From Promethearchaeota archaeon (GTDB taxonomy: Archaea; Asgardarchaeota; Lokiarchaeia; Sigyniarchaeales; SOKP01), in contig JBHLNF010000009.1 of the NCBI GenBank assembly GCA_048937405.1, forward strand, positions 128,001 through 192,000: a stretch of 64,000 bases of DNA. Reading direction: 5' to 3'. How positions within the stretch are numbered: position 1 is the stretch's first letter; the number at the start of each line of letters is the position of its first letter. The notes below the pieces were generated by a model, which saw only the letters and a list, made by a program, of their open reading frames with translations, was not told the DNA's origin and made no database searches. Shown piece after piece: positions 43,257 through 49,024 of the stretch. Position numbers and translations under genes: made by a program.

Positions 43257-43646
43257 TTATAATAAATTATCTAATATTCTATCTACTTTTTCTTTAATAT
43301 TCAATTTAGCAGTACTAGTATCTTTTAAAACTTGTTTTGTTTCAATAAAAATGTTTGTACTTAAATTTTTCATTAGTTTTAGATCCTTTTCACCTTCAAT
43401 AATATACACAAAATAAATTACTTTTTTATGATTTCCTAACAACTCTTTCGTAATTATGGTTATTTCATAATTGTCACCATATGTAATTGTAGCAATATCT
43501 TCTCTGAATAATTCTTTTCCTATTGCACCTATAGCTGAAATCAAACCACTGAAAATAGTAGGCTCAATCTGACCAATTTTCGGATCTATTTTTTGAGAAT
43601 AGAATGGATATCCTGTAGAATCGCAAATTAATACTGATTTTATCAT
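43257..43646 (-). CDS. Stand-alone longin/roadblock-like protein
   Basis: IKSVLICDSTGYPFY...IFSGLISAI..IGKEL pattern. Confidence 0.65.
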   Translation of the reverse strand: MIKSVLICDSTGYPFYSQKIDPKIGQIEPTIFSGLISAIGAIGKELFREDIATITYGDNYEITIITKELLGNHKKVIYFVYIIEGEKDLKLMKNLSTNIFIETKQVLKDTSTAKLNIKEKVDRILDNLL

Positions 43647-45431: not shown

Positions 45432-45722
45432 ATCTTTCTTTACACTCTTTAAGGTTATTTAGTATTTTAAAATTTCAAATCGTTTGTCATATATTTTTTT
45501 ATATTGTTTATTTCAAATAGATTTTGTGTATTAGTCTTACCAAGATACAGATTAGTATTATTATATTTGAGATTTTTTACTATTTATTCTTTATAATATC
45601 GTTTATAAATATTAATTGATTAATTCTCAAATGGAAATTAGAATCAGCAAAGTTTGTAAAAGTAATCAAAAAAAAGAGATATTCTAAAATTTGAAAATAT
45701 TAGAATAAAGACTTTATTTATT

Positions 45723-45827
45723 TTATTTTTTAGCTGGTGCTTTCTTTTTAGCTGGTGCTTTCTTTTTAGCTGGTGCCTTTTTTTTAGCTGGTGCTTTCTT
45801 TTTAGCTGGAGCTTTCTTTTTTGCCAT
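45723..45827 (-). CDS. 34-aa histone H1 tail-like basic peptide MA(KKKAPA)5KK
   Basis: ATG at 45827 with GAGGAG upstream, TAA at 45723-45725; variation among the five 18-bp repeats is synonymous in this frame. Confidence 0.8.
   Translation of the reverse strand: MAKKKAPAKKKAPAKKKAPAKKKAPAKKKAPAKK
45726..45821. repeat. 18-bp tandem repeat, about 5 copies
   Basis: Unit TTTTTAGCTGGTGCTTTC on the + strand. Confidence 0.95.
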
Positions 45828-46123
45828 ATTTCAATTCGTCTCCTCAATTCTGCCTAAATTAGTTGAATAAATTAATTTTTGTTAACTATTGATAGATTTG
45901 TATTTAAACATTTCTAATTTATCTTATTCCAAAGTTATTAACTTAATTATATTTTCTAATAAAAAGCATTTTTATAATAATTCGGTTTTATTTTAATTAT
46001 TTAAATGAGCAATGAATTAAAATAAGAAAAATAAAACAATCTGAAATTGATTTAACATGTGTAATCGAGAAGTTGGTTTAAGAAAATATTTGTTATAATT
46101 AAATATGAAATAAATTGATAAGA

Positions 46124-48835: not shown

Positions 48836-49024
48836 TTAATTATCCTTTTTAACTATATATGGATATTCATCTATGTATTCAAACATATTTGGAAATTTAA
48901 GTTTCCATCCACGAGTCTTTAGAATTTTTTTTTTAAGTTTTTGTTTATGAATTACTTTTCTACTTACTCTATTGCGTGGATATTTTTTTTTCTTTTTCTT
49001 TTGTTTTTGATATATTACTGACAT
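48836..49024 (-). CDS. 62-aa Lys-rich basic protein
   Basis: Poly-K N-terminus; SD GAGGTG upstream beyond a hairpin. Confidence 0.6.
   Translation of the reverse strand: MSVIYQKQKKKKKKYPRNRVSRKVIHKQKLKKKILKTRGWKLKFPNMFEYIDEYPYIVKKDN

Follow-up and report, generated by a model that had tools for sequence, protein, structure and literature searches.

The C-terminal domain of linker histone H1 combines a repeat composition of lysine, alanine and proline (K/A/P) with intrinsic disorder and a high positive charge, and kinetoplastid H1, which is devoid of a globular domain, is a precedent for a "tail-only" protein with linker-histone function. Among the bacterial proteins, chlamydial Hc2 (PF07382) consists almost wholly of Lys/Ala/Pro repeats, proteins of the Hc2 type condense DNA, and Pseudomonas AlgP is an H1-like nucleoprotein. 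The mycobacterial protein Hlp/HupB is a K/A/P-tailed HU with PAKKA-type repeats (PMC2409343). In cultured Loki strains, tailed histones of the HLoB type rank with the most abundant proteins; the HLoB.2 tail peptide AKKKTPAKK is methylated at K9, tail peptides are acetylated by LoHAT2 and deacetylated by LoSIR2b, and a free tail peptide is not mentioned in that work (preprint 10.64898/2026.07.02.735847).

The locus described here encodes a microprotein of 34 residues, MA(KKKAPA)5KK, that resembles the C-terminal domain of H1 in K/A/P repeat composition, charge and predicted disorder. It is 3-6 times shorter than that domain or kinetoplastid H1, has no winged helix and shows no detectable homology to them; its likeness to linker histones H1/H5, as a strongly basic, Lys/Ala/Pro-rich and presumably disordered sequence, is one of composition only. 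Hc2 and AlgP, with 100-350 residues, are also much longer, and the microprotein has no PF07382 match. With the HLoB tail it shares a Lys/Ala/Pro-rich, probably disordered sequence with Ala after Met1, and its start is near-identical to the published HLoB.2 peptide; unlike the HLoB histones, it has no histone fold and carries the motif 4-6 times, compared with a histone tail of 10-17 residues.

The microprotein gene and its expression signals

The window, that is, the whole stretch of 64,000 nucleotides that was analysed (G000:C27:128001-192000), comes from a genome (G000) of 4.47 Mb in 29 contigs with 28.9% GC, a MAG of a Promethearchaeota archaeon of the Lokiarchaeia type (Asgard). An earlier note, made from the letters of this stretch alone, had singled out a peptide of 34 aa with 17 Lys and no acidic residues, which was confirmed on the minus strand. 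The following features were assigned to the locus:

45723..45827, minus strand: microprotein coding sequence, MA(KKKAPA)5KK, 34 codons plus TAA (ATG at 45827-45825, TAA at 45725-45723)
45727..45821, no strand assigned: tandem DNA repeat beneath the coding sequence, 18 bp x 5.3, TRF score 169
45836..45845, minus strand: Shine-Dalgarno (SD) region GAGGAGACGA, with GGAG 16 nt before the ATG
45828..45880, minus strand: presumed A/U-rich, unstructured 5' leader, its extent deduced from the signals
45901..45916, minus strand: TAGAAATG + TTTAAATA, a promoter-like (BRE/TATA-like) element at -81 relative to the ATG
45668..45675, minus strand: T8 tract, likely an archaeal oligo-T terminator, 47 nt after the stop

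Besides its 17 Lys the peptide contains 11 Ala and 5 Pro, with a proline at every sixth residue and no Asp/Glu, and a pI of 11.2, a mass of 3.6 kDa and a net charge of about +17 were computed for it. The TRF score of the underlying repeat is the maximum of the window, the runner-up reaching 64. The mechanical ORF list also yields a longer, TTG-started ORF of 67 aa in another frame (45644..45847, minus strand), which fits the earlier claim that the wrong frame had been called. The repeat units differ at four bases (GCA/GCT twice; AAA AAG vs AAG AAA), and all four differences are synonymous in the microprotein frame and residue-changing in the overlapping one. The earlier note had taken this as a mark of selection at the protein level, and comparison of orthologues bore it out: an ungapped set of 13 orthologues of 37 codons has 4/8/29 variable columns at the three codon positions, with a mean pS of 0.52, a mean pN of 0.044 and pN/pS = 0.084.

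Searches with the peptide, with a profile and with a DNA pattern of SD plus start recovered stand-alone orthologues of 28-37 aa, all beginning with MAKK and present once per genome; the search of Asgard relatives that had been proposed as a check thereby found conserved orthologues at 31 unique loci. Every length difference among these loci is a multiple of three, i.e. only in-frame indels occur, and the copy number of the 18-bp repeat likewise changes in frame across species (4 or 5 units; 28, 29 or 34 aa). The stop codon is TAA at 28 loci and TAG at three. At three loci (L048, L062 and L091) an AAA-to-TAA change (Lys to stop) has produced forms of 31-32 aa; the six codons that formerly closed the ORF persist in phase beyond the new stop, which indicates that the length of the microprotein is only loosely constrained.

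The signals around the gene are equally regular. GGAG stands at exactly -16 in 26 of the 31 loci, inside a conserved AAGGAGACGTA block, and a TTTA(A/T)A box, with (T)AGAAAT ahead of it, begins at exactly -81 in 24 of them. We take the TAGAAATG + TTTAAATA element of the window to be an archaeal BRE/TATA; the position of the box at -81 would leave a leader of roughly 45-50 nt, for which RNAalifold, applied to 23 orthologous leaders, predicted no pairs and no conserved structure. In all 31 loci the stop is followed, at a distance of 18-47 nt, by a run of six to 15 T (T6-T15), which occurs in 17% of random 80-nt windows from the same loci. Box, SD, leader and T run together predict a monocistronic transcript of ~200 nt, both of whose ends are placed from these signals, and the strong SD and the unstructured leader suggest high expression. 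This set of features (MAKK ORF, box, GGAG, oligo-T, single copy), which in the window occupies 45668-45916, is common to the 31 unique loci.

Were the locus a non-coding tandem repeat whose open frame had arisen by chance, this would agree with the 18-bp periodicity of the DNA, and also with the finding that the exact sequences of six family members are all missing from a collection of 15 billion proteins, which does contain the tailed histone. Frame, start and stop are nevertheless kept at the 31 unique loci, variation falls at third positions with the low pN/pS given above, and the SD, the TATA-like box and the T tract are all conserved, and we regard a chance origin of the frame as practically negligible. 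From these comparisons we are highly confident that the microprotein gene is genuine, protein-coding and under purifying selection.

Codon choice within the lysine runs follows a pattern of its own. In the microprotein family, Lys doublets are written AAA-AAA in 62 of 71 cases (60% genome-wide), and all-AAA Lys triplets account for only 14 of 123 (33% genome-wide; naive binomial p 4e-8, not corrected for relatedness), the commonest triplet spelling being AAA-AAG-AAA. Since all-AAA triplets are rare and AAA-AAA doublets common, AAG is placed where it interrupts runs of at least nine A, as would be expected if slippage in transcription or translation of this frame were selected against.

Distribution and genomic context

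The gene was found in 25 of the 54 genomes of the genus, G000 included, in 7 or 8 of 42 genomes of a sister genus and in 1 of 5 of another genus, which amounts to about 34 of the 134 genomes of the family. The SD-plus-start pattern matched exactly once in each of 28 of these 134 genomes, and its reversed control not at all. Ten more copies are carried by low-GC sediment metagenome contigs. In the public genome collection, the orthologous loci belong to Promethearchaeota/Promethearchaeia MAGs, i.e. Lokiarchaeia-type Asgard archaea; a few of the contigs had been labelled Odin-, Thor- or Hermodarchaeota by their submitters, and the peptides of these are near-identical, at a GC content of 28-30%. 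The search of 399 Promethearchaeota genomes detected no stand-alone copy outside the family (f1), all matches beyond it being tracts within ORFs of 137-888 aa; the family to which the cultured Loki strains probably belong yielded no convincing match. The coding pattern had no match in viral contigs and thus gave no sign of a viral origin. A full-text literature search for the motif returned only papers on the HMGN2-derived F3 peptide and on mycobacterial Hlp/HBHA.

In the window the microgene is isolated, the next gene lying 290 nt downstream and 296 nt upstream, so that the earlier description of a gene standing alone with its own SD holds. Its neighbours are unrelated to it: upstream lies a gene for a 106-aa protein of no known family, which occupies the same side at 12 of the 31 loci, and downstream in G000 a gene for a flavodoxin/4Fe-4S protein. 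A further gene of the neighbourhood is the following:

43257-43646, minus strand: gene for a 129-aa protein, two genes further on from the microgene in G000

This gene is found downstream of the microgene, in the same orientation, at 10 of the 31 loci and upstream of it at one more. Its product has no Pfam match, appears longin/roadblock-like by eye, and is 76% identical to its counterpart in G008. The local gene order that species have in common indicates that the microgene is chromosomal and vertically inherited, with local rearrangement. In two genomes, each at least 99% complete, the gene is absent and other DNA occupies the syntenic site, which argues that its patchy distribution is partly real; with its presence in about half of the genus, these absences also indicate that it is dispensable. 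Assembly drop-out was considered as a cause of the absences: four of the loci (in G014, G018, G065 and G066) sit within about 700 nt of a contig end, but the two near-complete genomes lack the gene at the syntenic site itself.

Two other small basic or repetitive proteins were noted. In one genome (locus L165, G069 C16), the position that the microgene takes in other species, upstream of the 129-aa gene and on the opposite strand, is occupied by a gene for a 121-aa protein that opens with a long repeat of the Lys-Asp (KD) dipeptide type. Elsewhere in the window, 48836-49024 (minus strand) encodes a 62-aa basic protein with a pI of 10.4 and no Pfam match, in which a six-lysine run is encoded by a long A tract.

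The arrangement of the locus raises the question of whether the ORF could be a regulatory leader peptide or uORF whose 17 Lys codons sense lysyl-tRNA and control a downstream gene via the T tract. Such a role would suit a short ORF rich in one amino acid with a T tract behind it, and the recurrence of the 129-aa gene downstream in the same orientation at 10 of the 31 loci. The downstream gene varies, however, from flavodoxin/4Fe-4S in G000 to a longin-like gene or an opposite-strand nitroreductase elsewhere, the leader has no conserved alternative RNA structure, and the peptide sequence is under strong purifying selection beyond its count of lysines. A regulatory leader is therefore very unlikely in our estimation.

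Relation to the tailed histone and to other K/A/P-rich proteins

One of the profile matches in the genus proved to be not the microgene but the N-terminus of an archaeal histone of 84 aa, the orthologue of which in the source genome is:

C28:539982-540224 (= L025:1498-1743:-): tailed histone of 81 aa, PF00808

This gene agrees with the statement in the earlier note that the lineage bears histones. In the G000 histone a tail of 14 residues is followed by the fold, and residues 1-10 are the same as in the microprotein, as they are in 12 of the 16 tailed histones of the genus that were read; the N-terminus of the microprotein thus conforms to the HLoB-type tail motif Met-Ala-Lys-Lys-Lys-(Ala/Thr)-Pro-Ala-Lys-Lys. 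Tail length in the histones of the genus ranges over 10-17 residues, the tails differing in KKAPA-type units that keep the frame, and a tailed histone is present in about 44 of the 54 genomes. Judged by sequence, the closest relative of the microprotein is the N-terminal tail of the tailed histone (HLoB type) of its own genus, a likeness which, because of the low complexity, could be convergent. No PF00808 histone fold was found in the microprotein by Pfam, and the microgene does not share the highly conserved promoter and leader of the histone gene.

An origin of the microgene from a truncated tailed-histone gene found no support: no relic of the fold follows its stop (tblastn of the fold against the micro-loci gave chance matches only, E >= 0.8) and the 5' regions share only short AT-rich words, which leaves common descent of the two genes as a possibility.

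The identity of the first 10 residues, together with the three SIR2 and three SET genes that G000 encodes, would suit a decoy or buffer, in which free microprotein competes for the acetyltransferases, sirtuins, SET methyltransferases or readers of HLoB tails and so tunes their modification instead of binding DNA itself. Co-occurrence with the tailed histone is not evident (the microprotein is present in 4 of the 9 genus genomes without a close match to the histone and in ~20 of the 44 with one), tail and microprotein sequences show no consistent co-variation, and a peptide of charge +17 would be expected to bind nucleic acid in any case; a decoy role is thus considered unlikely.

The description of the peptide as resembling the tail of H1 stood in part. 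K/A/P composition, charge and predicted disorder agree with it; on the other hand, a Pfam scan at E <= 10 gave only a sub-threshold match to DUF1388 (E 0.12) and no winged helix of Linker_histone, NCBIfam and PDB profile searches returned no usable match, and the histone tail is closer. The families of Hc1/Hc2 (PF07432 / PF07382) gave no match at E <= 10 either, nor did NCBIfam. We see no sign in the sequences of descent of the microprotein from H1 or of H1 from it, its low complexity barring homology tests. The further suggestion that the peptide is relevant to the origin of the H1 tail was not supported: stand-alone copies were found in one Promethearchaeota family only (399 genomes searched), a restriction that argues against a direct line to the eukaryotic H1 tail, and on present evidence the microprotein does not bear on the origin of histone H1.

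Similar tracts recur outside the archaea. In the bacteria Litorivivens, Spongiibacteraceae and other Pseudomonadales, the coding pattern matched HU (PF00216), whose N-terminal tail it forms. HU proteins with an N-terminal K/A/P tail of 40-60 residues were noted at L067:6317-6772:- and at loci L058, L068, L072, L074, L075, L077, L080 and L087. These tails open like the microprotein, with MAKK followed by A/K-A-P and KKKAPAKK units; in HU the repeat is an extension of a folded domain that binds DNA, whereas the Asgard microprotein stands alone, and the likeness is almost certainly convergent. The pattern also matched a long all-repeat protein in a Gemmatimonadetes MAG. A profile search of 1.84 billion representative proteins gave four matches only, all repeat proteins of 181-234 aa: one with an S1 domain (the best match), one with SWIB, one Hc2-like repeat of 181 aa and one without a domain. 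This search is uninformative on small relatives, as a low-complexity profile of 33 positions cannot reach significance. The recurrence of the repeat as a polycationic appendage, mostly on nucleic-acid-binding proteins, supports action as a DNA- or RNA-binding tail and does not imply homology.

Two further occurrences were recorded. In a sister species, a Clp protease (PF00574; L010:1492-2220:-, G001 C402) carries a KKKAPA-type tail of ~25 residues at its C-terminal end, and a Dormiibacterota MAG of 71% GC contains a stand-alone K/A/P ORF of 28 aa (L089:1632-1679, minus strand), which may be an independent bacterial tail-only microprotein or a chance ORF.

Proposed function of the microprotein

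AlphaFold2 (AF2), run on the microprotein alignment, gave no secondary structure, with a pTM of 0.11 and a mean pLDDT of 67, from which we infer a disordered peptide with a charge of about +17. In our view the best explanation, with a probability of roughly 0.55, is a monocistronic gene for a foldless polycation of the histone-tail motif that binds chromosomal DNA or histone-DNA fibres, or possibly RNA, by charge; binding to DNA or chromatin, taken by itself, we put at about even odds. We likewise infer translation in vivo, nucleic-acid binding, compaction and modification. The microprotein would amount to the N-terminal tail motif of the genus's histone five times over without the histone fold, and removal of Met1 would leave a mature N-terminus AKKKAPAKK... 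matching that of the histone tail. Its binding to phosphate backbones would be non-specific, most probably to chromosomal DNA or histone-DNA fibres, where it would offset the charge of the phosphates and promote compaction or bridging, like the K/A/P tails of H1, HU and Hc2. Its lysines would be possible substrates of the enzymes that add acetyl and methyl marks to the histone tails of Loki and remove them.

The target of the peptide could also be RNA or protein, given that a Clp protease and an S1 protein, which binds RNA, also carry K/A/P tracts. In one such scheme, the microprotein would be a polycation associated with RNA or the ribosome, acting as a small, basic chaperone of RNA or as a peptide bound to ribosomes, and not a component of chromatin. 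The best of the 1.84 billion representatives has the same repeat on an S1 RNA-binding domain, many very small and very basic proteins are ribosomal, and the strong SD and unstructured leader would suit high expression; yet the gene is patchy within one family, unlike a core ribosomal component, and the peptide shows no Pfam or NCBIfam likeness to known small ribosomal proteins, for which reasons we consider this assignment improbable, though not to the degree of the leader peptide above.

A polyelectrolyte pair was also considered, in which a small, highly acidic protein neutralises or chaperones the microprotein, much as prothymosin-alpha neutralises and chaperones H1. A candidate partner in the source genome is:

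G000:C13:29409-29603 (= L135:1013-1204:-), minus strand: extremely acidic micro-ORF of 64 aa, rich in Asp/Glu/Trp, with a short basic N-terminus

An Hsp20-like gene follows closely downstream of this ORF, which carries a TTTAAATA box and the SD sequence AGGAGG and is the only small ORF of G000 with an SD and at least 40% Asp+Glu; matches to it with open frames of 47-69 aa were found in roughly 15-18 of the 54 genomes of the genus. The two genes are, however, unlinked, on different contigs, and their joint presence (10 of 15, against a baseline of 25 of 54) gives no clear association, which leaves such a pairing as a rather remote prospect.

Returning to the chromatin-binding polycation, a bolder form of it can be conceived, in which the microprotein is an abundant, diffusible "histone tail in trans" that is acetylated, methylated and deacetylated by the enzymes of the HLoB tails, so that its charge state sets the packing of Loki fibres. 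We offer this form as speculative and doubtful.

As the case of the microprotein shows, with six members of its family unlisted, annotation pipelines miss real genes of about 100 nt. A synthetic peptide of 33 residues would be a cheap handle on its possible roles in DNA compaction and as an enzyme substrate. A gene for the tail motif alone would add a new and very simple chromatin component to the picture of tailed histones in Asgard archaea and, if the tail were indeed to act in trans, it would represent a primitive, modification-controlled function like that of a linker histone, which would have arisen in Asgard archaea independently of H1.
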